A DNA stretch of 64,000 nt from Magnetococcales bacterium (lineage in GTDB: Bacteria > Pseudomonadota > Magnetococcia > Magnetococcales > Magnetaquicoccaceae). The position numbers were made by a program, and so were the translations under genes. This document shows, one piece after another, positions 40,457 to 52,671 of this stretch (positions within the stretch are counted from its first letter, which is position 1; the number at the start of each line of letters is the position of its first letter). Below the pieces are notes generated by a model. The model was not told the origin of the DNA, did no database searches, and saw only the letters and a list, made by a program, of their open reading frames with translations. The stretch spans positions 4,457 through 68,456 of the forward strand of contig JADGAR010000018.1 of assembly GCA_015231915.1 (NCBI GenBank), written 5' to 3'.

Positions 40457-40816
40457 ATGATCGAAATGACCGTTTCCGACAATCTCCTGTCCGGGGCGTT
40501 CACCGGGGCCAAGGCAGGTGGCATGGTCACCGTGGAACGCAATGACCACGAGGTGCGCATCCACGTGCGTGGCGAGTTCACCTTCAAGCTGCGCCAGGCC
40601 TTTCGTGACGCCTATTTCCGCGAGCCGCCCGGGGCGCACTATGTGGTGGACATGTCCGGAGTCAACTTCATGGACAGCTCCGCCATGGGCATGCTGCTGG
40701 TCTTGCGGGAGCACGCGGGCGGGGAGCAGTCCAGAGTCACTCTGACCAATCTCTCCCGAAAATTGATGGCCCTCATGAAGGTGGCCAGTCTGCATGAAAT
40801 GTTCAAAATTGTCTGA
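40457..40816 (+). CDS. STAS-domain protein (anti-sigma antagonist-like)
   Basis: GEFTF...VVDMS.VNFMDSSAMGMLL with phosphoacceptor Ser; start 40457 or 40466. Confidence 0.85.
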   Translation: MIEMTVSDNLLSGAFTGAKAGGMVTVERNDHEVRIHVRGEFTFKLRQAFRDAYFREPPGAHYVVDMSGVNFMDSSAMGMLLVLREHAGGEQSRVTLTNLSRKLMALMKVASLHEMFKIV

Positions 40817-40827
40817 GGAGGTCGCGC

Positions 40828-41583
40828 ATGGAAGGATTGTGGGTGGTGCCTGACGATATGGAACGCCTCCTGGCCGAGGGCGGGGATCCGGACATCCGCG
40901 ATGCCGAAGGGTGGACCATGCTCCATCGGGCCATCCAGGAGGGCGCGGTCGAACTGGCCGAGCGGCTCGTCATGTATGGCGCCCAGGTCAACGTCGTGGA
41001 TCCCCAGCGCTGGACGCCCCTGCATTGGGTGGCGGTGCGCGGCTTCGCCTCCCTGGCCCGCCTGCTCCTGGAGCACGGCGCCAATCCCAATGCCCAGGAC
41101 CTGGACAAGGAGACCCCCCTGCACTGGGCCGCCTCCTGGGGCCACATGGAGACCGCCGAGCGGCTCCTGGATGCCGGGGCCGACATCAACGCCAGGGATC
41201 GTCATGGCGAAACCCCGCTGTTCCAGGCCGTTCAGGAAGGGTATGTGGCCATGGCCGAACTGCTCATGTCCCGTGGTGCCCAGGTGGACGTGCGCAACGC
41301 CGATGGCGGCCCTCCTCTCCATTGCGCCGTCTTCCACGGCCAGACCGAGGTGGCCGAGCATCTGATCCGCCATGGCGCGGAGGTCAATGCCAGAAACCAT
41401 TTCGGCAAAACGGCGCTCCACTTCGCCGCCATCCGCGGACGGGTCGAGGAGGCCGACATGCTCCTGGCCGGGGGCGCGGACATCAATGCGCGGGACTCCA
41501 CCGGTCGCACCCCCATGTCCGTCGCCAAGGACAACGACCGTCCGGACATGGTGGATTTCTTTCGCCGGCACGGCGGCCTGTGA
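40828..41583 (+). CDS. Ankyrin repeat protein (about 7 repeats)
   Basis: 33-aa spaced GWTMLH, WTPLH, ETPLH, GETPLF, GPPLH, GKTALH, GRTPM with GA.VNA. Confidence 0.93.
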   Translation: MEGLWVVPDDMERLLAEGGDPDIRDAEGWTMLHRAIQEGAVELAERLVMYGAQVNVVDPQRWTPLHWVAVRGFASLARLLLEHGANPNAQDLDKETPLHWAASWGHMETAERLLDAGADINARDRHGETPLFQAVQEGYVAMAELLMSRGAQVDVRNADGGPPLHCAVFHGQTEVAEHLIRHGAEVNARNHFGKTALHFAAIRGRVEEADMLLAGGADINARDSTGRTPMSVAKDNDRPDMVDFFRRHGGL

Positions 41584-41587
41584 CCGG

Positions 41588-42163
41588 TCAGGCGGGGTCC
41601 GCTGTTTTGCGCAGGAAGCGGCGGTAGATCCAGATACTGATCAGCACCAGGCCCAGCCCCCCGAAAAAGTAGATCTGATAGGCCTTGATCTTCTCCAGAA
41701 AGGCCTCCATGGCGTGGCCGAAGAGGTAGCCCCCATAGGCGAAGGTGGTGGCCCAGACGATGGCGGCTATGGCATTCAGGACCATGAAGCGCAACGAGGG
41801 GATCGACGTTGCCCCCAGGGCGAACGGGGTGACGTTGCGCACGCCGTACACGAAGCGAAAGCCCAGAATGAACCAGGTGTCGTATTTCGCCAACAGCTCC
41901 ATCACCCGCGCGGTGCGTCTTTGCCAGGATTCGCTTTTCGCCCGGTTGATCAGGAGATGGCCCCAGCGCCGACCGATGAAGAAATACAACTGGTCGCCGA
42001 AGTAGGTCCCGGAAAAGGAGGCGAGGATGACCATGTTCACATCCAGAACGCCGGTCTTGGCCAGATAGCCGGCGATCAGGACCATGGTTTCGCCCTCCAG
42101 GAAAGTTCCGACGAACAACACGATATAGCCATATTCGCGCAAAAAGCCTTCCAGGATTTCCAT
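41588..42163 (-). CDS. DedA/SNARE-associated family membrane protein
   Basis: FLEGE...GDQLYFFIGR...FRFVYGVR...GA..I...RF...NA. Confidence 0.92.
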   Translation of the reverse strand: MEILEGFLREYGYIVLFVGTFLEGETMVLIAGYLAKTGVLDVNMVILASFSGTYFGDQLYFFIGRRWGHLLINRAKSESWQRRTARVMELLAKYDTWFILGFRFVYGVRNVTPFALGATSIPSLRFMVLNAIAAIVWATTFAYGGYLFGHAMEAFLEKIKAYQIYFFGGLGLVLISIWIYRRFLRKTADPA

Positions 42164-42192
42164 GTTGCCTTGTATTCCTTAAGATTGCGTTG

Positions 42193-43116
42193 CTAGGGTG
42201 AGGAAGCGGTTTGCGGGACCGGGATATAGCCGCCCCGTTGCAGGATCTCCCTGGCCTGCGGTCCCTTGAGCCATTCCAGAAATCTGGCGCTTTGCCCGGC
42301 GGGTGGTCCAAGGGTATACAAATAGAGGGACCTGGACAAGGGATAGGTCTTGTTGAGCGTGGAAGCGACGGTGGGCGGGACGCAGGGCACCTTGGGGCCG
42401 CGGCTTTGGGAGATGCACAGGGTCTTGACCTTGCCGGTGATGTAGGGCATGCCGGAATAGCCGATGGCACAGGGCATCTGGGCGACCATGGAGACGATTT
42501 CGTCGGAGGCGTCCATGCTGATCATGTGGTGGTCGAAGTGGTCGTGCTTGGGCAGGATGGTCTCCCGGAAGAAGGCATAGGTGCCGGAATTGTTTTTGCG
42601 GCTCAAGGGGAGGATTTTCTGGTCCTGGCAACCGGGGACCTGCACCCCCAGATCGGACCAGCGCGAGGTGGATTCCCCCTTGCCGTAGATCTCCATCAAT
42701 TGCTGGAGGGAGATGCCATTGAGAGGATTGGCGGGGTTGACCACCACGGAAACCGCGTCCAGGGCGACCACCTGAAAGACCGGAGTCGCGCCCGCCTGTT
42801 TTTTTGCGGCGATCTGGAATTCCCTGGAGCGCATGAGTCTGCTGGAGGCAGCGATATCCGCGTGACTGTTTACCAACGCGGCAATGCCATTGCCGGAACC
42901 GCCGCCCGTCACCTCGATGACGACCTCGGGCGCCACCTCCCGAAAGGCCTTGGCCAACTCCCGGAGCGCCTTGGTGAGGGTGTCGGAACCCTTGATGCGG
43001 ATGGGAGCGGACTTGTCGCCGCCTGCCTCCCTGGCGTGGGCCTCGGGGAGCGCGGCCCCGCATGCCAGCAGGAGCCAGATCAGGAGCGACAGGCAACGGG
43101 AAACGGACGGTTTCAA
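42193..43116 (-). CDS. pstS: PstS-like phosphate-binding periplasmic protein
   Basis: Signal peptide; GSDT, GGGSGNGI, DIAASSR, ALDAVSVVVNPANP, R.NNSGT, AIGY, YPLSRSLY; TTG start with GGAGG RBS inside the upstream gene's last codons. Confidence 0.88.
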   Translation of the reverse strand: MKPSVSRCLSLLIWLLLACGAALPEAHAREAGGDKSAPIRIKGSDTLTKALRELAKAFREVAPEVVIEVTGGGSGNGIAALVNSHADIAASSRLMRSREFQIAAKKQAGATPVFQVVALDAVSVVVNPANPLNGISLQQLMEIYGKGESTSRWSDLGVQVPGCQDQKILPLSRKNNSGTYAFFRETILPKHDHFDHHMISMDASDEIVSMVAQMPCAIGYSGMPYITGKVKTLCISQSRGPKVPCVPPTVASTLNKTYPLSRSLYLYTLGPPAGQSARFLEWLKGPQAREILQRGGYIPVPQTASSP

Positions 43117-43120
43117 GTGG

Positions 43121-45364
43121 TTACCTCCTGTTCATGACCAGAGTGTCCTGATCCAGTATGCATTGGACATACAAGCCCGTGGCGCTGGCCTCGGTGTCGA
43201 ACTCCTGCCCCACCACCCAGATTTGGGTGATTTTGTCGCTGATTCGCAGCAGGGCGTCAAGGGATTCCCGGAAGCGCTGGCGATCGTAGTAGGCGAAGGG
43301 TTCGTCCAGGGCGATGGCATGCAGGCCGCCGCAACGCAGGGCCAAAGCTTGCGCCAGGGCCATGCGGATGGCCAGGTTCAATTGCCGGCGCACCCCGGTG
43401 GAGACCTCCTCCATGCGGACGAAGTCGTTTTTGGCCTCGGAAAAGACCGAAACATCGAGGTCATCGTCCAGGCGCAAATGCCGATAGCGTCCCTGGGTGA
43501 AGAGCGGTGCGGTGGAGGCGATGAAACGGTGCAGCTCCTGGTTGAAGTGGGCGGAAAGTCCCACACACGCCCCTTTCAGCAGTTCGCGACCGATCCGGCG
43601 CACGGCGATGGCGTGTTCTGCGGCGTGGTTTTCGGTTGCCATGATCCTGACCGCCTCGGCCAGGCGGGCATGTTCGCGGCGTCGTTCCTTTTCGTCGCGC
43701 AGCGCCTGTTCCAGGTTGAGGACCGTCTGTTCGTGGGTCGCGATTTCCGCGCGGGTGGCGGCAAGCTGCTCTTGCGCCTCTTCGCGGCAGTGGACGATTT
43801 CGGTCTGAAAGCCCTTGACCCGCTTGTCCAGGCCGGCCAGATATTGGCGCAAGGCGTCGGCGGTCAGCAGGGGCCTGCCCTCTGCCTGGGTCCAGGCGTG
43901 CAGGTCGGCGAGCCAGGGGGCGTTCTCCATGGCGGCCAGGATTTGCACCTGGCGTTCCAGGGGCTGGGTCAGGGCCTCGTTGATGGCCGCCACCCGTTCC
44001 CGGGCCAGCCGGATGCGCTGCTGCAAGGTTTCCCGATCCGTCATGACCTGCCGGATCCGTCCCTTTTTGCGCCAGCGGCCTCCCAGGTTCCACAGGGTCA
44101 GCAGCGTGGCCAGAATGGCCGTGGGCATCAGCAGCAGGGTCCGGGAGTTCTCCCAGTTGGGGATGTGTCGGGCGAGGAGTTCCACCAGACGGGGGGCGAA
44201 CTCCGGGTTTTGCTGGCTGTGCAAGGCCACCCACGTTCCGGCTCCGGCGATGAGCGCCACCAGCAGAAACAGGATCACCCCGAAGCCTTGACGGGCGCGT
44301 GCACGAATGAGCAGGCGCAGCGTCTGTTCCAGGCGGGCGTTTTCCGCATTGCTGCTCTCCGGGTTGGTGCGATTGACCGGGCCTTCCAGCCAGCCCGTCA
44401 GGCGGTTGTGTTCTTCCTGTGCGCTTTCCTGGATCCGTGCCAGATCCGACAGGCGTCCCTGCAACTGGTGCTGCCACTCCCGCAAGGGCGCGGCGGGGGA
44501 GCTGTCCATTTCCACCTGCCCCCCCAGACAGACGCTTTCCAACTCGGCCAGGGCGGTGTCCAGCTGGCCTGCCCGGCTCTGCCAGCCGGGCAGGCCGGTC
44601 TCCGGGGTGGTGTTGGCCAGGCGCTGGCAGGCCGTGGCAATGTTTCTGGAGGATTGCAGCAGGGCGGCATCGAATCCTTCCCAGCGTTGTGCGATGGAGG
44701 TGGTGGCCTCCACCTGGTCATGGGCTTCTTGCAACCCTGTTTCCAGTTCGCCCAGGGCCTCCTCGCGCAGGGCGAGGGCGTGAATTTTTTCCTGGGTTTC
44801 GGTCAGGCGTTGCAGGCGGGCATCGATCGCCTCTTCCTCGGCGTGGATTTCGTTGGCCAACTCCCTGCTCAGGTTTTCCAGGGTGGCCACCCCGGCCAGT
44901 TCCTTGACCGTATCCTGGGGCCGGGGATGGGAATGGCGCCCCAGGGTCAGGTAGAGGGCATCGGTGTATTGCCCATAATCGAAGCCGATCACCCGGATCA
45001 TGGCCTCGTTCACCGCCTCCACCCCCTGGGCCAGGGGGTGCTCCTGGTCCTGGCGGGTCAGGCGCGCGCGCTGCACCCCGTCCGCGTCGAAGTAGCGGAA
45101 CAGGGAGTATTCCCCCAGGTCGCTGCCCTGAAAATCCATGGTGACCGAGGCGTTGTCGGCCCCCCAGCGCACCGCCTTGGCCACGGTGGCGTGGGTGAGA
45201 TTGGAGGTGCGACCGAACAAGGCGAGCGCGATGGTCTCCAGGATGGCCGATTTGCCGGACTCGTTGGAGCCGGCGATGAGAATCCGCCCCCGCGCCGGCA
45301 GGCCGTTCAGATCGAGTTTTTTGTACTTGAAGAGATTTTCCGAGCACAGACGCCGAATGATCAT
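43121..45364 (-). CDS. SMC/Rad50-like (YhaN/SbcC-type) ABC ATPase with central transmembrane hairpin
   Basis: N-terminal Walker A GSNESGKS; C-terminal VSTG and LDEPF; long coiled coils either side of two hydrophobic helices at about 44085-44290. Confidence 0.82.
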   Translation of the reverse strand: MIIRRLCSENLFKYKKLDLNGLPARGRILIAGSNESGKSAILETIALALFGRTSNLTHATVAKAVRWGADNASVTMDFQGSDLGEYSLFRYFDADGVQRARLTRQDQEHPLAQGVEAVNEAMIRVIGFDYGQYTDALYLTLGRHSHPRPQDTVKELAGVATLENLSRELANEIHAEEEAIDARLQRLTETQEKIHALALREEALGELETGLQEAHDQVEATTSIAQRWEGFDAALLQSSRNIATACQRLANTTPETGLPGWQSRAGQLDTALAELESVCLGGQVEMDSSPAAPLREWQHQLQGRLSDLARIQESAQEEHNRLTGWLEGPVNRTNPESSNAENARLEQTLRLLIRARARQGFGVILFLLVALIAGAGTWVALHSQQNPEFAPRLVELLARHIPNWENSRTLLLMPTAILATLLTLWNLGGRWRKKGRIRQVMTDRETLQQRIRLARERVAAINEALTQPLERQVQILAAMENAPWLADLHAWTQAEGRPLLTADALRQYLAGLDKRVKGFQTEIVHCREEAQEQLAATRAEIATHEQTVLNLEQALRDEKERRREHARLAEAVRIMATENHAAEHAIAVRRIGRELLKGACVGLSAHFNQELHRFIASTAPLFTQGRYRHLRLDDDLDVSVFSEAKNDFVRMEEVSTGVRRQLNLAIRMALAQALALRCGGLHAIALDEPFAYYDRQRFRESLDALLRISDKITQIWVVGQEFDTEASATGLYVQCILDQDTLVMNRR

Positions 45365-45564
45365 GCCACGTTCTCCTGTGCCGGCGGACGGGCGCGCAAA
45401 CGGCTTTGGACCAGCTCCATGGCTTCCTGGTGCAAGGGGGCGTCGAATGCGGGATCGGTCTGTTGTCGGCGGGCGATCTCTTCCGCGCTGAAGGTGGCGA
45501 ATACCTGAACGGGATCCTGGATGCGGAACTGGGCGTGGCTTGCGGACGACTCTTGCGAACTCAT
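45361..45564 (-). CDS. Small hypothetical protein, 67 aa
   Basis: GAGGT RBS 6 nt before ATG; ATGA overlap with the SMC-like gene. Confidence 0.6.
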   Translation of the reverse strand: MSSQESSASHAQFRIQDPVQVFATFSAEEIARRQQTDPAFDAPLHQEAMELVQSRLRARPPAQENVA

Positions 45565-45725
45565 CGATGCACCTCGTGGCCAAGCGATTTTTGGGAAGGG
45601 GTGACGGCACTATAAACCTTTCCTGGCGGCGGGTAAACCCATGATCCATTATCGGAATGGAAGAAGGCAGGCCGCTCCTGCCGCTGGCTTGTGATATTTT
45701 TTTCTATACCTTGTTTCTCGTACCC

Positions 45726-45755
45726 TTGACAACATCGTATGCCAATTGGTAGCTT
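45726..45755 (+). promoter_or_regulatory. Sigma70 promoter candidate for the metallophosphoesterase
   Basis: TTGACA-N18-TAGCTT with extended -10 TG. Confidence 0.55.
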
Positions 45756-45801
45756 TACGTTTCATGATTGTCTCGTCATGCCATAATTATGGAGGATAAC
45801 A

Positions 45802-47346
45802 ATGCAAAGATTGATGCCTGTTGCAGGATTGATGATTTTTATGACGGTTTTTGGAATGGTGCAGCCGGTCTGGGCCGGGGATTTGCTGGCTTATGTGGTT
45901 CTGGGCGAAAAGGGGGCGACCTTGACCGGAGAGACGGTCCCGGTGGCGCGGGTGGTGCTGGAACCCGCCCAGGATGCGGCGTGCGCCACCATGACCATGA
46001 CCAATGGCCAGGGCAGCCCGATCCAACTGGTCTTGCGGCCCAACCCCAATCCCACGGAGATGCCCGTCACCGTCTGCGAGGCGGCACTGCCCTTCGCCGC
46101 CAACCATCAGGCCAGGGGGGAGACATGGACCGTGACCGACGGCAAGAGCGGCAAGCAATACAAGGTGCAGTTGCCCAGCGTGGGCCGCTCTCCGGAGGTG
46201 GCGGTGATTCTGGGTGACAGCGGTTGCCGGGGCAACAAGGCACAACCCTGCACCGACAAGGATTGGCCCCTGCCGACCGTGATGGCAAAGCAGATGGGGG
46301 CGTATCTGGCCAAGGAGAACAAGCCCGCAGTGATCCTCCATGTGGGGGATTTCAAGTATCGGGGCAAGCAGGACGACAGCGGCAAGCCGCAAAAATGGAG
46401 CAACTGGAAGGCGGATTTCTTCACCCCCATGTCCGGGAGCGAGAATGTATTCGCCATGGCCCCGCTGGTGGTGGCCCGGGGCAACCACGAGCTGTGCAAG
46501 AGCATGGGCAACAACGGAGACGGCTGGTACTTCCTGCTCGATCCCACCTCCAGGGTGGCGGGCAATACGGAGCAGCAGGTCAAGGACCATTCGTGCCAGG
46601 GGGTGGCGGACGGGATGACCCGGCCCTATCGTCTCGATTTCGCCAACGACTGGAGCGTGGTGGTGCTGGATACCGCCTCACTGAACGAGACCACAACCAT
46701 CTGCGACACGGACAAGGAGATTCTGGCCGGGTGGTACAAGGAGATCGGCAAGAGTTTTTCCAGTGGCAAACGCAAGGCCTGGCTGGTGACCCACAAGCCG
46801 ACCTGGGCGGTCTTGGGCAAATGCGACAAATTCGATTTCAGCAATCCCACGCCCCAGGCCGCCCTGGAGGGTTTGCCGCATAACACCCTGCCGGAGAACA
46901 TCAAACTGGCCCTGGTGGGTCACAAGCATCTGTACGCCAGCATGGATGTCAATCCAGAGGATGAGAAAAGCCGCATGCTGGAACTGGTGGCCGGCAACGG
47001 CGGGGTGGTGTTGAACACCAAGGCCCTGAGCGGCTGCCTGAAGACCGGCAAGAAAACCGCCATCAACGCCCACGGCATGAGCCGTTTCGGCTTCGTGGCA
47101 GGCCGGCTGAACGGCGGCAAGAGCGTGGACGGCTGGAAGCTGGAGGTGATGGCCTTCAAGAACGTCGCGGGGGGTGGCGACTGGGGGGGTCTGGTCACCG
47201 CCGAGAAGTGCGAGTTTCCGGCCAAGAGCGGCAAGCCGGCGTGCGAGATCAAGGCCGCCGACCTGTTCGCCAAGAGCTGTTCCTCCTGCGAAAAGGCGGA
47301 CGGCAAACCGGGCCACGCCTGCGCCGCAGAGGATGGGGACGAATAA
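45802..47346 (+). CDS. Secreted metallophosphoesterase, purple-acid-phosphatase-like
   Basis: Signal peptide ending VWA; motifs GDSG, GDFKY, GNHE, LVTH, GHKH; many Cys. Confidence 0.85.
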   Translation: MQRLMPVAGLMIFMTVFGMVQPVWAGDLLAYVVLGEKGATLTGETVPVARVVLEPAQDAACATMTMTNGQGSPIQLVLRPNPNPTEMPVTVCEAALPFAANHQARGETWTVTDGKSGKQYKVQLPSVGRSPEVAVILGDSGCRGNKAQPCTDKDWPLPTVMAKQMGAYLAKENKPAVILHVGDFKYRGKQDDSGKPQKWSNWKADFFTPMSGSENVFAMAPLVVARGNHELCKSMGNNGDGWYFLLDPTSRVAGNTEQQVKDHSCQGVADGMTRPYRLDFANDWSVVVLDTASLNETTTICDTDKEILAGWYKEIGKSFSSGKRKAWLVTHKPTWAVLGKCDKFDFSNPTPQAALEGLPHNTLPENIKLALVGHKHLYASMDVNPEDEKSRMLELVAGNGGVVLNTKALSGCLKTGKKTAINAHGMSRFGFVAGRLNGGKSVDGWKLEVMAFKNVAGGGDWGGLVTAEKCEFPAKSGKPACEIKAADLFAKSCSSCEKADGKPGHACAAEDGDE

Positions 47347-47347
47347 G

Positions 47348-48460
47348 TCAGGGCGCGATCCTGACCGGCAAAAACCCGTTGCCCGGCAAGCGAAAATTGG
47401 TCACCTGGCCCTGATAGACCCGCGCGGCCACGCCGAGGGGACGGTCCCGGTAGCAGTAAAGGCGGATATCCGTTTTGAGGGTCGTCTCGCCGACACGGGT
47501 CAGGGAGGGGGGGATGAACTGCTGCACCAGCGTGGTGGCAGGATCGAGTTCGTGGAAACGGACGCGGCTGATCTTGTTGCCCAACAATACCCCCTTGCTG
47601 CCAAAGCCGACGCTCGGCTTGAACACCGATTGATTGCGCTCACGCCACGCCTGGTCCAGGCTCAACGTCGCCAGCAGCCGGGTTCTGGGGACGTGCCGGG
47701 TCAGGAAGGCGATTGCCGGGGCGCTCAGGCCCAGGCTCCTCAGCGCCTCGGCATCGGACCAGAGGATCATGCGCCGCTTGTCGGCCAGCAATCCGTACTG
47801 GCGCGGATTGGGGGAGAGACAGACCCGCCGGTTGCGCCAGGCGGCGGCCAGCCCGGCCAGCGGTGCCGACTCCAGATAGAAATCGCAGTGCCGGTTGTAA
47901 ATCATCTCCACCCGCCTGGATTGCCAAAAGACCCCGCTTTCGTTCATGGTCAAAGCGGCAGGATCGGCGATGACGGTCTCGCAGCCCCAGGCGGTCAGCA
48001 GGGCGGCGAAGGCGCGCATCTCCGGATAGAGAAACTGCTCTTCCGGGGCCTCGTCCAGGATCACCAGCAGGCCGGGTTTGGTGACACGGCCCCCGCTGAA
48101 CAGCGCCATCTCCTCGCCAAAAGTGGCCAACAGTTCCCGTTGATGACGTTGGTCGGGGTCGAAGCTCCCTTGCGGAAACTCCGGGCCGGGGGGAAAGGCG
48201 GGCCGCAGGGCGCGATAGGCCATCAATCCGCCGCCGGCGTTGGTGTTGACCTCGATCAGCCTGGGACCGTCCGGGGTGAGATGGAAATCATACCCCATCA
48301 TGACCGCCTCGTTGCCGGGATCGGTCAGGAAGCTGGCAGGGGTTCCGGCACGGATGGCCTCCTGCCAGGCTGCGGTGCGCGTCAGTCCCCGCAAGGCACG
48401 CGCCAGGTGGATCATCGCCCGCACTGCCCCGGGGGAAACCGTTACGAACGGGTCAGACAT
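47348..48460 (-). CDS. Uncharacterised ATP-grasp-like ligase (glutathionylspermidine synthase / circularly permuted type)
   Basis: GYDFHL...PRLIEVNTNAGG; IYNR; VFKP..GFGSKG; VQQFIPP; DIRLY; AARVY; start MSDPF. Confidence 0.7.
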   Translation of the reverse strand: MSDPFVTVSPGAVRAMIHLARALRGLTRTAAWQEAIRAGTPASFLTDPGNEAVMMGYDFHLTPDGPRLIEVNTNAGGGLMAYRALRPAFPPGPEFPQGSFDPDQRHQRELLATFGEEMALFSGGRVTKPGLLVILDEAPEEQFLYPEMRAFAALLTAWGCETVIADPAALTMNESGVFWQSRRVEMIYNRHCDFYLESAPLAGLAAAWRNRRVCLSPNPRQYGLLADKRRMILWSDAEALRSLGLSAPAIAFLTRHVPRTRLLATLSLDQAWRERNQSVFKPSVGFGSKGVLLGNKISRVRFHELDPATTLVQQFIPPSLTRVGETTLKTDIRLYCYRDRPLGVAARVYQGQVTNFRLPGNGFLPVRIAP

Positions 48461-49604
48461 GGGCTGGCTCCCGATGGACGAAGAGAAGGGCGGAGCGATG
48501 GGAGGCCGCCACGCCTGCCAGGGCGGCCAGTGCCATGACGCCGAACAGGATCTGGGAACCCCTGCTGTCGAAGAGCACCCCGGAGACCGCCATCCCCAGG
48601 CCGCCACCCGCGCCGTAGGAGAGGCCGGAAAGCCACCCCTGCGCCGCGCCCCGGCCATTGACCGGGGCCATGTCGTAGACCCGGCGCACCGCAGCGATGT
48701 GGAAGGCACCGAAGGTGAAGGCATGCAGCAACTGGCCGGCCAAAAGCAAACCGACCTGCAGCGTGCTGGCGTAGAGGGTCCAGCGCACCACGGCCATCAG
48801 CAAAGAAAAGGTCAGAAGGCGCGAGATCCCGAAGCGGTCCAGCAGGCTCTGGGAGCGGTGCATCAATCCCACCTCGGCCACCACCCCCACCGCCCACAAC
48901 AGGCCGATGGCGGTGCGGGAGAAATCGTGCTGTTGCAGATGCAGGGACATGAACCCATAATAGGCCCCGTGGGAGAATTGCATCAAAAACGCGCTGAAAT
49001 AAAACCAGCGCACCTCGGGCCGGTCGAAGATGGCCGGGGCCGGGCCGGTCCAAGGGTGGACCTCCAGCCGGGGCAGTCGCATGGCAAAGAGGAAACCGGT
49101 CAGCAGCAGCACGGCGATGACAAAAGGGACGATACCGATGCCCCAGGCATCGGTCATGGGTCCGGCCATCAGGGTGAGCACAACGAATCCCCATGACCCC
49201 CAGAGCCGGATGCGGCCATAATCCCAACGCCTGCGCACGCACAGCTCCATGGCCAAAGAGTCGGTGAGGGACAAGGGCGCGGCGTGAAAGAGGCTGTACA
49301 AAACCGTGGCCAGCGCCAGCCACAGGAGTCCATGGTCGAGGAAGAACAGGCAGAAGGCGAGCAGGGTGGCCAGGCAGGTGTAAAGGATGACCGTGTGCCG
49401 CCCGGCGCCCCGGTCGGCCACCCGACCCCACAGGGGCGGGGCCGGGATCTTGATCCACTGGGCGAGCGCGGTCAGAATGCCGATGGTTTCGGCGCTGTGG
49501 CCCAGATGGGAGAGGTAGAGCGGCCAAAAGGGGAGCCATACGCCGAGCACCGCGAAATAGCAGGCGTAGAAACCGGCCAGTGGCCAACGGGAGTCAGTGG
49601 CCAA
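48453..49604 (-). CDS. MFS transporter (MFS_1_like / HcaT-type)
   Basis: 12 TM pattern; YG.IRLWGSWGF; LHAFTFGAFH; TTG start. Confidence 0.9.
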   Translation of the reverse strand: MATDSRWPLAGFYACYFAVLGVWLPFWPLYLSHLGHSAETIGILTALAQWIKIPAPPLWGRVADRGAGRHTVILYTCLATLLAFCLFFLDHGLLWLALATVLYSLFHAAPLSLTDSLAMELCVRRRWDYGRIRLWGSWGFVVLTLMAGPMTDAWGIGIVPFVIAVLLLTGFLFAMRLPRLEVHPWTGPAPAIFDRPEVRWFYFSAFLMQFSHGAYYGFMSLHLQQHDFSRTAIGLLWAVGVVAEVGLMHRSQSLLDRFGISRLLTFSLLMAVVRWTLYASTLQVGLLLAGQLLHAFTFGAFHIAAVRRVYDMAPVNGRGAAQGWLSGLSYGAGGGLGMAVSGVLFDSRGSQILFGVMALAALAGVAASHRSALLFVHREPAHV

Positions 49605-49608
49605 CGGG
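49578..49608. repeat. 14-bp direct repeat with 17-nt period at the MFS start
   Basis: CAGTGGCCAACGGG at 49578 and 49595. Confidence 0.9.
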
Positions 49609-49610
49609 GT

Positions 49611-49979
49611 TCAGAACCGGAACAGCACCCATTGCGGGACCATGAGCTTGGGTTCGTAGCCGTTGATCCTGGTCTCGAACAGGCCATCGCCGTCGTTGTC
49701 GATGAGATAATACGGCGGGCCGCTGTAGGGGATGACCTGGATCTGGAAGACGGCGCCGTTGACAGCGCTTTCCCGCACCTGGTTGCCCTGGGCGTCCTCG
49801 TATTTGCGGATCACGGTTTCGGGTCCGTCGGGTTCGGCCTTTTCCCGCAGTTCCGACACCAAAGGCCCCTTGGCGGGCGGGGCGTGATCCTCCCTGGCCA
49901 GGGATGGGGAGGCCGCCACAAGCAAGAGCAGCCCGGCCAGCAACGTTCCGGTATTAAGAGAGGGTTTTTTGAATAGCAT
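49611..49979 (-). CDS. DUF2782-type secreted protein
   Basis: Signal peptide; PETVIR...VRE..VNG....I.V.P..GPPYYLID.DGDG; PQWVLFRF; divergent from polA. Confidence 0.8.
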   Translation of the reverse strand: MLFKKPSLNTGTLLAGLLLLVAASPSLAREDHAPPAKGPLVSELREKAEPDGPETVIRKYEDAQGNQVRESAVNGAVFQIQVIPYSGPPYYLIDNDGDGLFETRINGYEPKLMVPQWVLFRF

Positions 49980-52671
49980 GGCGACTCCTCGATTGTTTCT
50001 GATGGATGGCTCCGGTTACCTGTACCGCGCCCATTACGGTGTCAAGAATCTCGCGCGGCGCGACGGGTTTCCCACCAACGCCATTTTCGGCTTCATCAAG
50101 ATGATTCGCAAGGTCATCCATGAACACAAGCCGGAATACATGGCCATGGCCTGGGATCCGGGGGGGGAGTTGTTCCGCCATCGCCTCTATCCGGACTACA
50201 AGGCCAACCGTCACGCCATGCCCGACGAGCTGCGGATGCAGGTGCCGGTGATCCGGCGTCTGGTGGAGTGCTGGAACCTGCCCGCCTTCGAGCAGGCCGG
50301 CTGCGAGGCCGACGACGTGATCGGCACCCTGGCCGTGGCCGCCCGCCGGGAGGGGTTCGAGGTGGTGATCGTCTCCGGGGACAAGGACATGATGCAGCTC
50401 GTTGCTCCCGGGATCACGATCTTCGACCCCGGCAAGGAGGCGTGGCTCGGCCCGGCGGAGGTGGAGGAGCACTGGGGGGTTTTGCCTGCGCGGGTGACCC
50501 AGGTGATGGCCTTGATGGGGGATGCCTCGGACAACGTGCCGGGGGTGCCGAATATCGGCATCAAGACCGCTGCCCAGTTGATCCGGGAGTTCGGGGATCT
50601 GGAGACGCTTTTCACCAATTTGCACAAGGTCCCGCAGCCGATGCGGCGCAGGAACCTGACCGAATCGGCCCATCTGGCCCGGCTCTCCCTGGAATTGGTG
50701 ACCATCCGGTGCGACGTGGAGCTTGCCATCGATTTTGCCGCCTTGCGGGTGCGTCCCCCGGATCAGGAGGCCCTGCGCGCCCTCTATCTGGAAATGGAAT
50801 TCACCTCGCTGGCCAGGGAGTTGGGGCCGCCTGGGGTCGTGGAGGAGAAGCCTGCTCCGGTTCTGGCGTACCGCAACGTGACGGAGGAGGGGGCCTGGTT
50901 GGATTTTTTGCGCCAACTGCGGGGCTGTTCCGCCTTTGCCATCGACACCGAGACCACCGGGACCGATCCTACCCGGGCCGAATTGGTGGGGCTGTCGTTT
51001 TCCTGGCAGGCCGGTCAGGCCTGGTACATTCCGGTGGGTCATGTCCCGGAGAGTTTGCCTGCGGGCCAGTTGGACCGGGAGCGGGTTCTGGCGGATTTGC
51101 GCCCGGTGCTGGAAAATCCCGCCATTGCCAAGATCGGCCAGAATCTCCGATACGAATATGTCCTGCTGCGCCGCTACGGCATCCGGCTGGCCAATCTGGC
51201 GCAGGACAGCATGCTGCAATCCCACCTGTTGCACGGTGGCGCCCGGCGGCACAATCTGGACGCCATTGCCCTGGCCGAACTGGGCCGGGTCACCACCACG
51301 TTCCAGGATGTGACCGGCATTGGCAAAAAACAGGTCACCTTCGACCGGGTGCCCCTGGCGTCCGCCACCCATTATGCCTGCGAGGACGCCGAGATCACCT
51401 GGCTTGCGGCGGCGAAAATGCAGCAACAGTTGGCGGGCATGCCCAAGGTCGAGCGGCTTTACCGGGAGGTGGAGCTGCCATTGATCCCGGTGTTGGGGGA
51501 GATGGAACTGGCCGGTGCCCTGCTCGACCGGGGGGGGTTGGAGCGGATGTCGGCGGATCTCACCGTGCGCCTGGAGCAGTTGACCAAAGAGATTCACGCC
51601 ATGGCCGGGGAGGCGTTCAACATCAACTCCACCCAGCAGTTGGGGGTGATTCTGTTCGAGAAACTGGCCATCAAGGGGGGAAAACGCACCAAGACCGGCT
51701 TTTCCACGGACGTGGATGTGCTGACCCGGCTTGCCGAGCAGGGCCATGAGTTGCCGGCCCGGGTGCTGGAGTATCGCACCCTCGCCAAGCTGCGCTCCAC
51801 CTATGCCGATGCCCTGGTGGAGCGGATGGATCCGCGCACCGGGCGGGTACACACCAGTTTCAACCAGGCCGCGACCCTGACCGGGCGGTTGTCCTCCTCC
51901 GAGCCGAATTTGCAGAACATTCCGGTGCGCCGTCCGGAGGGGCGGGCGATTCGGCAGGCCTTTGTCGCGCCTCCGGGTCACGTGCTGTTGTCTGCCGACT
52001 ACAGTCAGATCGAGTTGCGGCTGTTGGCCCATTTGGGGGAGGTGCCGCGTTTGCGGGCCGCATTTGCCGAGGGGTTGGACATTCACGCCGCCACTGCCAT
52101 CGAGTTGTTCAAAATGGACCCTGCCGCCCCGGACCCGGAGTTGCGGCGCATGGCCAAGACCATCAATTTCGGCCTGGTGTACGGCATGAGTCCCTATGGC
52201 CTGGCCAAGCGTCTGGGGATTGCCGTGGGCGAGGCCTTTTCCTACATGGATCTCTATTTCCGGCGTTACCAGGGGGTGCGGGAGCACATGGACGCCACCA
52301 TTCGTTTCGCCCGCGAGCATGGTTATGTGGAGACCATCGGCGGTCGGCGCTGTTTTGTCGCCGACATCGACCATGTCAACCGCAACCTGCGGGAGCTGGC
52401 CGAGCGCACCGCCATCAACGCCCCCTTGCAAGGATCCGCCGCCGATCTGATCAAGATGGCCATGATCCGTCTGCATCGCGAGTTGCACCGGCGCGGCATG
52501 GCCAGTCGCATGATTCTGCAGGTGCATGACGAGCTGCTGCTGGAGGTCCCGGAAGGGGAGCTGGAGGCGGTGCAACCGGTGGTCCGCGAGGCCATGGAGG
52601 GCGCCATGTCTCTGTCTGTCCCCCTGCAGGTGGATATGGGTATTGGACGCAACTGGGGGGAGGCGCATTGA
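49978..52671 (+). CDS. polA: DNA polymerase I
   Basis: LMDGSGYLYRA, EADDVIGTL, GDASDNVPG; exo AIDTET, YACEDA; TGRLSSSEPNLQNIP, ADYSQIELR, AKTINFGLVYG, QVHDEL. Confidence 0.98.
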   Translation: MATPRLFLMDGSGYLYRAHYGVKNLARRDGFPTNAIFGFIKMIRKVIHEHKPEYMAMAWDPGGELFRHRLYPDYKANRHAMPDELRMQVPVIRRLVECWNLPAFEQAGCEADDVIGTLAVAARREGFEVVIVSGDKDMMQLVAPGITIFDPGKEAWLGPAEVEEHWGVLPARVTQVMALMGDASDNVPGVPNIGIKTAAQLIREFGDLETLFTNLHKVPQPMRRRNLTESAHLARLSLELVTIRCDVELAIDFAALRVRPPDQEALRALYLEMEFTSLARELGPPGVVEEKPAPVLAYRNVTEEGAWLDFLRQLRGCSAFAIDTETTGTDPTRAELVGLSFSWQAGQAWYIPVGHVPESLPAGQLDRERVLADLRPVLENPAIAKIGQNLRYEYVLLRRYGIRLANLAQDSMLQSHLLHGGARRHNLDAIALAELGRVTTTFQDVTGIGKKQVTFDRVPLASATHYACEDAEITWLAAAKMQQQLAGMPKVERLYREVELPLIPVLGEMELAGALLDRGGLERMSADLTVRLEQLTKEIHAMAGEAFNINSTQQLGVILFEKLAIKGGKRTKTGFSTDVDVLTRLAEQGHELPARVLEYRTLAKLRSTYADALVERMDPRTGRVHTSFNQAATLTGRLSSSEPNLQNIPVRRPEGRAIRQAFVAPPGHVLLSADYSQIELRLLAHLGEVPRLRAAFAEGLDIHAATAIELFKMDPAAPDPELRRMAKTINFGLVYGMSPYGLAKRLGIAVGEAFSYMDLYFRRYQGVREHMDATIRFAREHGYVETIGGRRCFVADIDHVNRNLRELAERTAINAPLQGSAADLIKMAMIRLHRELHRRGMASRMILQVHDELLLEVPEGELEAVQPVVREAMEGAMSLSVPLQVDMGIGRNWGEAH

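Follow-up and report, generated by a model that had tools for sequence, protein, structure and literature searches.

The 64,000-nucleotide window considered here, a stretch of a Magnetococcales MAG, carries four co-directional genes on its minus strand (45564 to 41588), which encode, in order, a very small protein, an SMC/Rad50-like ATPase with hydrophobic helices at its centre, a PstS-like protein and a DedA-family protein. To our knowledge, every well-studied ATPase of the SMC/Rad50 type is a soluble machine that acts on DNA and is closed by either a hinge or a zinc hook. The locus raises the question of what such an ATPase does in a membrane, and whether the genes that accompany it are parts of the same machine. 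A sequence-only reading had proposed a membrane-tethered machine co-expressed with a phosphate sensor and a DedA protein, as either a phosphate or envelope-stress system or a Lamassu-like module.

The four-gene operon is real and chromosomal, and its conserved core is the small ORF and the ATPase only. The first gene (45361..45564, minus strand, as are all features of the operon) encodes a 67-aa protein, and its end overlaps the start of the 747-aa ATPase gene (43121..45364) by 4 nt in the form ATGA. The ATPase gene closes with AAC AGG AGG TAA, and a perfect AGGAGG therefore lies inside its last two sense codons; a CCAC spacer leads from the stop to the TTG start, at 43116, of the 307-aa PstS-like protein (42193..43116; junction, 43117..43129), leaving a gap of 4 nt. 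A further 29 nt separate the PstS-like stop from the ATG of the last and variable gene, dedA (41588..42163; 191 aa). All of these junctions had been described from the sequence alone and are as described. The sole promoter-like site between 41300 and 45900, a consensus match only, is a sigma-70-like candidate, TTTACC-17 nt-TATAGT (45609..45637), 44 nt 5' of the small ORF; four relatives likewise carry a GGGTTTAC...TATAGT/TAATAT/TAAAAT arrangement 5' of the small ORF. G+C of the operon region matches that of its flanks. Neither a nuclease gene nor pstCAB is present within the four genes, as had been claimed, with the correction that a Metallophos protein with a signal peptide is encoded divergently (45802-47346, plus strand), 237 nt upstream of the operon. 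NCBIfam does not class this protein as SbcD-like, and its gene occupies this position in two genomes only, the present one and that of its nearest relative.

The head of the ATPase is that of the Rad50/SbcC/SMC superfamily: an N-terminal Walker A and a C-terminal signature and Walker B are separated by a long helical insertion. Profile search of the PDB retrieved the Rad50 heads of M. jannaschii (E 3e-28), and the best Foldseek matches were Rad50, Smc5/6, SbcC and LmuB. Matches to family models were low, with only 28.9 bits for Pfam AAA_23 and with all NCBIfam SbcC/Rad50 models far under their cut-offs (TIGR00618, 47.7 bits versus 478.5). Within the Walker A (GSNESGKS, aa 32-39; 45248..45271), G32, G37 and K38 are invariant in 91/91 family sequences. 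The C-terminal motifs (43301..43405), comprising the signature S-T-G (aa 655-657) and the Walker B/D-loop LDEPFAYYD (aa 686-694), are just as constant, S655, D687 and D694 being present in all 91 sequences and E688 in 90. The motifs that bind and hydrolyse ATP are conserved, with the exception of the H-loop: slightly downstream of the D-loop, Gln720 aligns under the H-loop His of Rad50, and this position is Gln in 84 of the 91 sequences and His in none. In the lineage of this genome the Q-loop Gln is also replaced, by Leu or His. Given these two changes, catalysis in this lineage may be slow or altered, as judged from the residues at these positions.

The helical arms of the ATPase end in a two-helix transmembrane hairpin, with no zinc hook or hinge. 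Transmembrane helix 1 (about aa 360-382; 44219..44287; hydropathy 2.54) is preceded by RARARQG, and transmembrane helix 2 (about aa 409-430; 44075..44140) is followed by GRWRKKGR, so that the two segments are bordered by Arg/Lys-rich stretches on both cytoplasmic sides. In the AlphaFold model they run on into long helices, H338-385 and H404-466 respectively. Between them lies a predicted periplasmic loop of 26 residues (aa 383-408; 44141..44218) with a short helix, H391-400. The hairpin, whose hydrophobic segments are aa 363-381 and 410-428, recurs at a conserved position in almost all of some 150 representatives of the family; hydropathy, homologues and model thus agree with the placing of two transmembrane helices at the coiled-coil apex by the sequence-only reading. 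No part of the protein is less conserved than the loop, which has 22-28 residues, mostly 26, in members linked to PstS and 4-30 in the others; some members have only 4-12. In the shorter family members (about 620 aa) one arm is missing about 110 residues, so a simple two-stranded arm is perhaps too simple a picture.

The 67-aa protein, translationally coupled to the ATPase through the ATGA, is a helix-loop-helix protein whose hairpin fold is predicted with confidence (H18-36, a DPAFD loop, H42-58; AlphaFold mean pLDDT 82, core 96). It had no match in Pfam, NCBIfam or PADLOC. Its family motif, F-x-L-x-x-P-x-x-E-F...E-I-E-R-L-R...P-D-F-D-E-x-L-Y-x-E-A-V-x-L-V-L-R-K-L, is encoded directly 5' of the ATPase gene in 90 of the 92 distinct loci, making it the sole constant neighbour, and the 4-nt overlap is found in 67/97 loci. 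Recurrence of the pair on this scale, in several phyla, is far beyond chance; it is a conserved and uncharacterised unit. Comparison of the small protein with the C-terminus of Mre11/SbcD gave no significant alignment (hhalign probability 14%), nor did a genome-wide HMM search return a match.

At E<=1e-30 the ATPase family counts 362 representatives. Its confirmed genome loci number at least 540 and are spread over Gram-negative lineages that include, among others, Magnetococcales, Gammaproteobacteria, Binatia and Phycisphaerae. Pfam, NCBIfam and PADLOC hold no model for it, and public records label its members just ‘AAA family ATPase’ or ‘hypothetical’. The module lies on the chromosome and is passed on within lineages: the family tree agrees with taxonomy, no plasmid copies were found, and phage matches span only the N-terminal head. 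It is missing from 16 of the 56 Magnetococcales genomes searched. Outside the core pair, the neighbours are housekeeping genes that vary from clade to clade (lysA/dapF, or acyl-CoA dehydrogenase/SDR/SecA); in no clade examined did a nuclease gene, another DNA-related gene or an effector gene lie beside the family. These observations support that part of the sequence-only reading which saw an SMC/Rad50-like ATPase tethered to the membrane, coupled to a small ORF and lacking a nuclease of its own.

The PstS-like protein, which has a signal peptide, is a lineage-specific addition to this core. It scores 121 bits with PF12849 and 182.4 bits with TIGR02136, under the 206.6 cut-off of the latter, and shares 43% identity with the canonical PstS of the same genome, whose pst operon (pstS, pstB) lies on contig C132. 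Its closest solved structure is the phosphate-binding protein 4omb (E 1e-33), and alignment with this structure and with canonical paralogues places the residues of a predicted phosphate site (GSxT, GSG, Asp/Glu, SR, R...SGT) in the retained motifs GSDT, GGGSGNG, D-I-A-x-S-S-R and R-K-N-N-S-G-T-Y. Proteins of this kind form a distinct clade apart from transporter PstS (SH-aLRT 99). In Magnetococcales the operon is part of a larger conserved neighbourhood: polA and, divergent from it, MFS and ATP-grasp-like genes, small ORF, ATPase and PstS-like gene in this order, at a position fixed throughout the order among the housekeeping genes polA, dnaB and alr. The PstS-like gene adjoins the ATPase in 23 of 26 Magnetococcales loci, even where the ATPase is 28% identical, and among the family loci examined outside the order none has it as a neighbour. 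The linkage is broken in both directions. Two relatives (G018, G030) have the ATPase without the PstS-like gene; G017 retains MFS, ATP-grasp-like and PstS-like genes in situ with the pair cleanly missing, and in another genus an ATPase-less orthologue adjoins secretin-SPOR and FecR-domain genes. We conclude that the linkage had a single origin in Magnetococcales and was later lost in places. Its order-wide retention, together with the ribosome-binding site within the last codons of the ATPase gene, could nevertheless reflect a real functional link. The product of dedA is a genuine family member (VTT_dom, the VTT/SNARE-associated domain, at 64.8 bits versus a cut-off of 33.9), and its gene follows the PstS-like gene in 9/26 loci and is absent from the nearest relative, which is 90% identical. 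Four-gene synteny in relatives is therefore upheld for the PstS-like gene within the order but not for dedA, and the notion of the four genes as a single conserved machine has to be abandoned, since the PstS-like gene is never adjacent outside Magnetococcales and it and the ATPase each occur without the other.

Our preferred reading, to which we assign a probability of roughly 45%, is that the core pair forms an ATP-gated, membrane-anchored clamp, probably on DNA, with which the PstS-like protein is co-expressed without being an obligate partner. Hairpins would anchor two ATPase chains in the inner membrane, the ends of each chain both being cytoplasmic by the positive-inside rule, and arms of roughly 20-28 nm would extend two heads into the cytoplasm, where ATP would clamp them together. 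The small protein would bind arms or heads 1:1, by analogy with the helix-loop-helix of Mre11 or a kleisin. The outcome would be a clamp that keeps a cytoplasmic polyanion at the membrane in response to ATP; we infer that this polyanion is most likely DNA because of the homology of the head, the sole basis for the choice. In Magnetococcales, the gene of a diverged phosphate-type periplasmic binding protein would have been captured directly downstream, with dedA next in some lineages, both being co-expressed with the module and neither an obligate partner.

It is tempting to turn the operon of Magnetococcales into a transmembrane phosphate sensor, in which the PstS-like protein, with or without phosphate, docks on the 26-residue loop and the arms relay the signal to the heads and the small protein. 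The adjacency in 23/26 loci down to 28% ATPase identity, the ribosome-binding site embedded in the ATPase gene, the retention of every phosphate-site motif by a clade of its own, the near-constant loop length of PstS-linked members and the secreted phosphoesterase gene inserted beside the operon in this lineage are all consistent with this. We nevertheless regard it as rather unlikely, as the putative docking site is the least conserved part of the ATPase and shrinks to 4-12 residues in some members, no family locus examined outside Magnetococcales has a PstS-like neighbour, and each gene persists without the other. Moreover, inspection by eye showed no Pho-box-like repeat in the operon promoter, in contrast to the region upstream of canonical pstS. 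A role in which ATP-driven head engagement across apposed membranes tethers or shapes internal membranes would fit the lack of nuclease or DNA-related neighbours, and the order of head, helical stalk and membrane hairpin may be likened to that of bacterial dynamin-like proteins and mitofusins. Several host groups, namely magnetotactic cocci, purple sulfur bacteria and planctomycetes, build internal membranes. On the other hand, every characterised member of the Rad50/SMC/RecN clade known to us acts on DNA, and 16 of 56 Magnetococcales genomes dispense with the module; on balance we think such a role improbable.

The Lamassu-like alternative of the sequence-only reading, or one of MADS type, would have the ATPase and small subunit detect incoming phage or plasmid DNA at the membrane. 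A small ORF with an SMC-like gene is a compatible layout, the spread among phyla is patchy, LmuB is among the Foldseek matches, and PADLOC gave weak matches to mad3 (E 3.5e-13) and LmuB (E 7.8e-11). Against this, in no clade does an effector gene, such as one for a nuclease, protease or Sir2, lie beside the module; mobile context is likewise lacking, with zero plasmid copies, phage matches to the generic head only, G+C like that of the flanks, a tree in line with taxonomy and a fixed order-wide position between polA, dnaB and alr. Defence is thus a very unlikely function. We consider it most improbable of all that the protein is an ordinary YhaN/SbcE-type double-strand-break repair ATPase whose YhaO/SbcD-type nuclease is encoded elsewhere, even though the head is Rad50/SbcC-like and the central domain of B. 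subtilis SbcE/YhaN is likewise hydrophobic and insoluble (PMC2811018). The ATPase scores 16.1 bits with AAA_27, against a cut-off of 22, and a nuclease gene accompanies the family in no clade. The single YhaO-like gene of the genome, on another contig (C41), adjoins its own 1204-aa AAA_27 protein (216 bits), which has no transmembrane hairpin and whose profile aligns with that of the ATPase over 67 columns only (probability 62%). The earlier judgement that this is no ordinary YhaN therefore stands.

If the clamp reading is true, it extends the SMC/Rad50 type of machine to the membrane, with hundreds of members that share a hairpin apex and a tiny obligate partner, and provides a testable candidate for the tie between the envelope and DNA, or another polymer, in some bacteria; the tempting account of the four genes as one phosphate-sensing machine is corrected. 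More tentatively, and with doubt outweighing belief, the family might represent a new and widespread class of SMC/Rad50-like complexes integral to the inner membrane, in which a transmembrane hairpin takes the place of hinge or hook and a dedicated helix-loop-helix subunit of about 65 aa that of nuclease or kleisin, physically coupling the membrane to DNA or to some other polymer of the cytoplasm and, in magnetotactic cocci, wired also to a periplasmic phosphate-binding protein.

Among known systems, PstS of PstSCAB shares with the PstS-like protein the PBP_like_2 fold, a signal peptide and all phosphate-site motifs; it differs in that the PstS-like protein falls under the TIGR02136 cut-off, belongs to a separate clade and has pstCAB on another contig. 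Lamassu LmuB/LmuC and MADS mad3 resemble the core pair in combining an SMC-like ATPase of similar size with a small subunit, a likeness reflected in weak HMM and fold matches. The locus differs from Lamassu in having no LmuA-type effector (PADLOC is blank for the three neighbouring proteins) and in its core-genome context, mobile copies having not been found; the transmembrane hairpin is a feature of the present family and not of Lamassu. SbcE/YhaN (AAA_27) of Bacillus subtilis is likewise an SMC-like ATPase with a hydrophobic centre, between its coiled coils, in place of hinge or hook (PMC2811018), whereas the partner of the present ATPase is a 67-aa helical hairpin rather than the metallophosphoesterase SbcF/YhaO, and the YhaN-like protein of this genome also differs in keeping the H-loop His. 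From Rad50/SbcC the ATPase is set apart by an apex that is a transmembrane hairpin with no CxxC zinc hook (aa 340-440 contain no Cys), by the absence of an adjoining Mre11/SbcD nuclease gene and by the Gln of its H-loop. Rad50/SbcC is nevertheless its best match in both sequence and fold: the two share an ABC head interrupted by a long insertion of antiparallel helices, the same order of Walker A, Q-loop, signature, Walker B and D-loop and, by analogy with the Rad50-binding domain of Mre11, possibly a small helix-loop-helix companion.

Four co-directional genes on the reverse strand make up the operon: a 67-aa small ORF (45361–45564), followed by genes for a 747-aa ATPase (43121–45364), a 307-aa PstS-like protein (42193–43116) and a 191-aa DedA protein (41588–42163). 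The tight coupling described in the sequence-only reading is borne out at each junction. The small ORF and the ATPase gene share an ATGA overlap; the ribosome binding site of the PstS-like gene lies within the last codons of the ATPase gene, whose 3′ end reads AAC AGG AGG TAA, followed by CCAC and the TTG start, so that a perfect AGGAGG stands seven nucleotides 5′ of that start; and 29 nt precede the dedA ATG. A consensus match identified a single sigma-70-like site upstream, TTTACC-17-TATAGT (45637–45609, reverse strand), 44 nt 5′ of the small ORF and kept in four relatives. The G+C content of the operon region resembles that of its flanks, and Rfam gave no matches within 40500–50000. Immediately 5′ of the promoter-like site, a perfect GGCAGG/CCTGCC inverted repeat is followed by TTCTTCC (45666–45682, reverse strand); the repeat could be the remnant terminator of an upstream gene once adjacent.

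The ATPase has the head of a Rad50-like protein and a pair of transmembrane (TM) helices in mid-chain. Single-sequence matches are weak and N-terminal, both in Pfam (AAA_23, 28.9 bits) and to the NCBIfam SbcC/Rad50 models (∼47 bits, with cut-offs above 478), while a profile of ten homologues aligned with archaeal Rad50 heads over both of their halves (E 3e-28). The best structural matches of its AlphaFold model (pLDDT 74) were Rad50, Smc5/6, SbcC and LmuB. The two hydrophobic segments (aa 363–381 and 410–428), bordered by RARARQG and GRWRKKGR, run on from the long arm helices in this model. Because the apex between the arms contains no cysteine, the protein has no zinc hook. Among 91 family sequences, the key residues of Walker A, Walker B, the signature and the D-loop are invariant or nearly so, and the H-loop position is Gln, with His in none. 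The Q-loop Gln is present in 84 of the 91; here residue 141 (44942–44944) is Leu instead, and the three nearest relatives have Leu or His. This loss suggests that ATP hydrolysis may be altered or slowed in this sub-lineage. Conservation is lowest in the loop between the TM helices, which spans 22–28 residues (mostly 26) in PstS-linked members and 4–30 in others.

The small ORF is the sole constant neighbour of the ATPase family. At 90 of 92 distinct loci, an HMM trained on 73 of the sequences from these same loci placed the small-ORF motif within 330 nt 5′ of where the ATPase begins, and the 4-nt overlap occurs at 67 of 97 loci. The product had no match in Pfam, NCBIfam or PADLOC, and fusions to the ATPase were absent among 164 proteins. 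AlphaFold models it as a confident helix–loop–helix, with which Foldseek returned nothing below E 7; an HMG-box likeness (SOX17, E 0.01, 18 bits) was taken as chance. We considered that it might be the detached Rad50-binding motif of Mre11/SbcD. An hhalign comparison with the genome's YhaO-like protein aligned the extreme C-terminus at a probability of only 14%, and a six-frame HMM search of the whole genome gave no Mre11/SbcD-type C-terminal match. The likeness to the Mre11 motif is therefore drawn as an analogy only, homology not being supported.

The family is chromosomal and inherited within lineages. Searched by profile, 1.84 billion representatives yielded 362 proteins at E ≤ 1e-30, in size classes of ∼750 and ∼620 aa, nearly all with the central TM pair, and a scan of species-representative genomes gave at least 540 confirmed loci. 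Among the best 80 of these are Gammaproteobacteria (Chromatiales, Ectothiorhodospiraceae, Sedimenticola), Candidatus Binatia, Phycisphaerae/Planctomycetota, Desulfobulbaceae and Sandaracinaceae. When 401 genomes were sampled evenly across the phylum, the family turned up in 40 of 56 Magnetococcales and in none of 345 others; its distribution is therefore patchy. The ATPase tree tracks taxonomy, with Magnetococcales as one clade. None of 72,556 plasmids matched the family, and phage matches were confined to the generic N-terminal head. In the non-Magnetococcales loci examined, no PstS-like, DedA, MFS or ATP-grasp-like gene was adjacent; the neighbours there are clade-specific housekeeping genes, either lysA-dapF-DUF484 or acyl-CoA dehydrogenase, SDR, a luciferase-like protein and SecA.

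Local synteny was assessed at 26 Magnetococcales loci from 25 relatives, with genes called by ORF heuristics; several counts contain duplicate same-genome loci, and distinct-sequence counts are given where it matters. The four-gene arrangement proposed from the sequence holds across the order for three genes and fails for the fourth. The small ORF lies 5′ of the ATPase gene at every locus with adequate upstream sequence, and the PstS-like gene lies directly 3′ at 23 of 26. DedA, an ordinary member of its family, follows at only nine of 26 and is absent from the nearest relative, which is 90% identical. On a larger scale, the conserved gene order runs from a divergent polA through an MFS_1_like transporter, an ATP-grasp-like gene, the small ORF and the ATPase to the PstS-like gene; a neighbour called as ‘orf932’ proved to be an antisense frame of polA. 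In the window, the transporter gene and the ATP-grasp-like gene, whose 370-aa product matches ATP-grasp_3 weakly, overlap by 8 nt (47348–48460 and 48453–49604, reverse strand), and this pair is kept 5′ of the module at most Magnetococcales loci. A gene for a 514-aa Metallophos protein (45802–47346, forward strand; 31 bits), divergent from the small ORF, has been inserted between this ORF and the ATP-grasp-like gene; it is found at this site only here and in the 90%-identical relative. Its product has a signal peptide and a Cys-rich C-terminus, and matched nothing in PDB or NCBIfam.

Several explanations compete with a DNA-capturing membrane clamp. A role in phosphate sensing would make the PstS-like protein a partner. 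This protein has a signal peptide, matches PBP_like_2 (121 bits), scores under the TIGR02136 cut-off, and retains every phosphate-site motif of the canonical paralogue and of 4omb. Order-wide adjacency, the tight junction and a clade separate from transporter PstS (SH-aLRT 99) argue for partnership. Against it stand orthologues without the ATPase, ATPases without the PstS-like gene, and the poorly conserved, variable loop. Same-clade orthologues occur in genomes where the ATPase was not found: in one relative (L142:5433–8888), MFS, ATP-grasp-like and PstS-like genes stand in one row, and the small ORF and ATPase are absent with no remnants detected, as though the two-gene module had been cleanly deleted. 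In another Magnetococcales genus, a module-type PstS-like gene lies 3′ of a secretin-SPOR gene (L143:5524–12681, L144:3998–7506, L145:4690–8263), at L143 with a 1091-aa FecR-domain membrane protein between them. Conversely, the ATPase is retained without a PstS-like gene in one genome (G018) and in both copies of another (G030). On the ATPase tree, the linkage requires one gain and two losses within the Magnetococcales clade. No Pho box was seen by eye in the operon promoter, whereas the region 5′ of the canonical pstS carries TTCAT repeats at 11-nt phasing. That pstS lies on contig C132 with two pstB genes, which are adjacent (C132:2570–4095; 313 and 266 bits) in a canonical pst cluster. Weighing this evidence, we read the PstS-like gene as co-expressed with the module and possibly co-functional, but not as obligate.

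YhaN-type repair would cast the ATPase as an ordinary YhaN with its YhaO nuclease encoded elsewhere, as the sequence-only reading had allowed. The only YhaO-like metallophosphoesterase in the genome (442 aa) directly precedes an AAA_27 YhaN-like ATPase of its own (1204 aa, 216 bits) on contig C41 (L140:1367–6162), which argues against this account; that ATPase lacks the hairpin, still has His in the H-loop and shows only a weak match to the present family. The neighbouring Metallophos protein is ruled out as a hidden SbcD by its signal peptide, its failure to match SbcD models and its lineage-specific occurrence. The genome yielded no SbcC match above cut-off, and a second SbcC-like match, near a PstS paralogue on contig C52, is an unrelated AAA_15/AAA_21 ATPase on the opposite strand. 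A defence function might be read from the likeness to LmuB, against which stand the small protein's lack of a PADLOC match and the inheritance with the host lineage; membrane tethering would draw on the same hairpins as the clamp. For the clamp itself, we envisage an ATPase homodimer anchored in the membrane by its hairpins, whose heads would engage upon ATP binding, and to which the helix–loop–helix subunit may bind stoichiometrically, on the model of kleisins or of the Rad50-binding domain of Mre11. Since, to our knowledge, every characterised protein related to the head acts on DNA, such a complex would be expected to capture DNA at the membrane.

We found no curated model or paper describing the ATPase family, although a 2020 ABC-ATPase classification may mention it. 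The closest known architecture is that of Bacillus subtilis SbcE/YhaN, which has a hydrophobic, insoluble central domain and the nuclease SbcF/YhaO as its partner (PMC2811018). Unlike SbcE/YhaN, the present family neither matches AAA_27 nor is accompanied by a nuclease, and its sequences fit best with a new Rad50/SbcC-type variant that carries a membrane hairpin, lacks a nuclease and has a small subunit dedicated to it.
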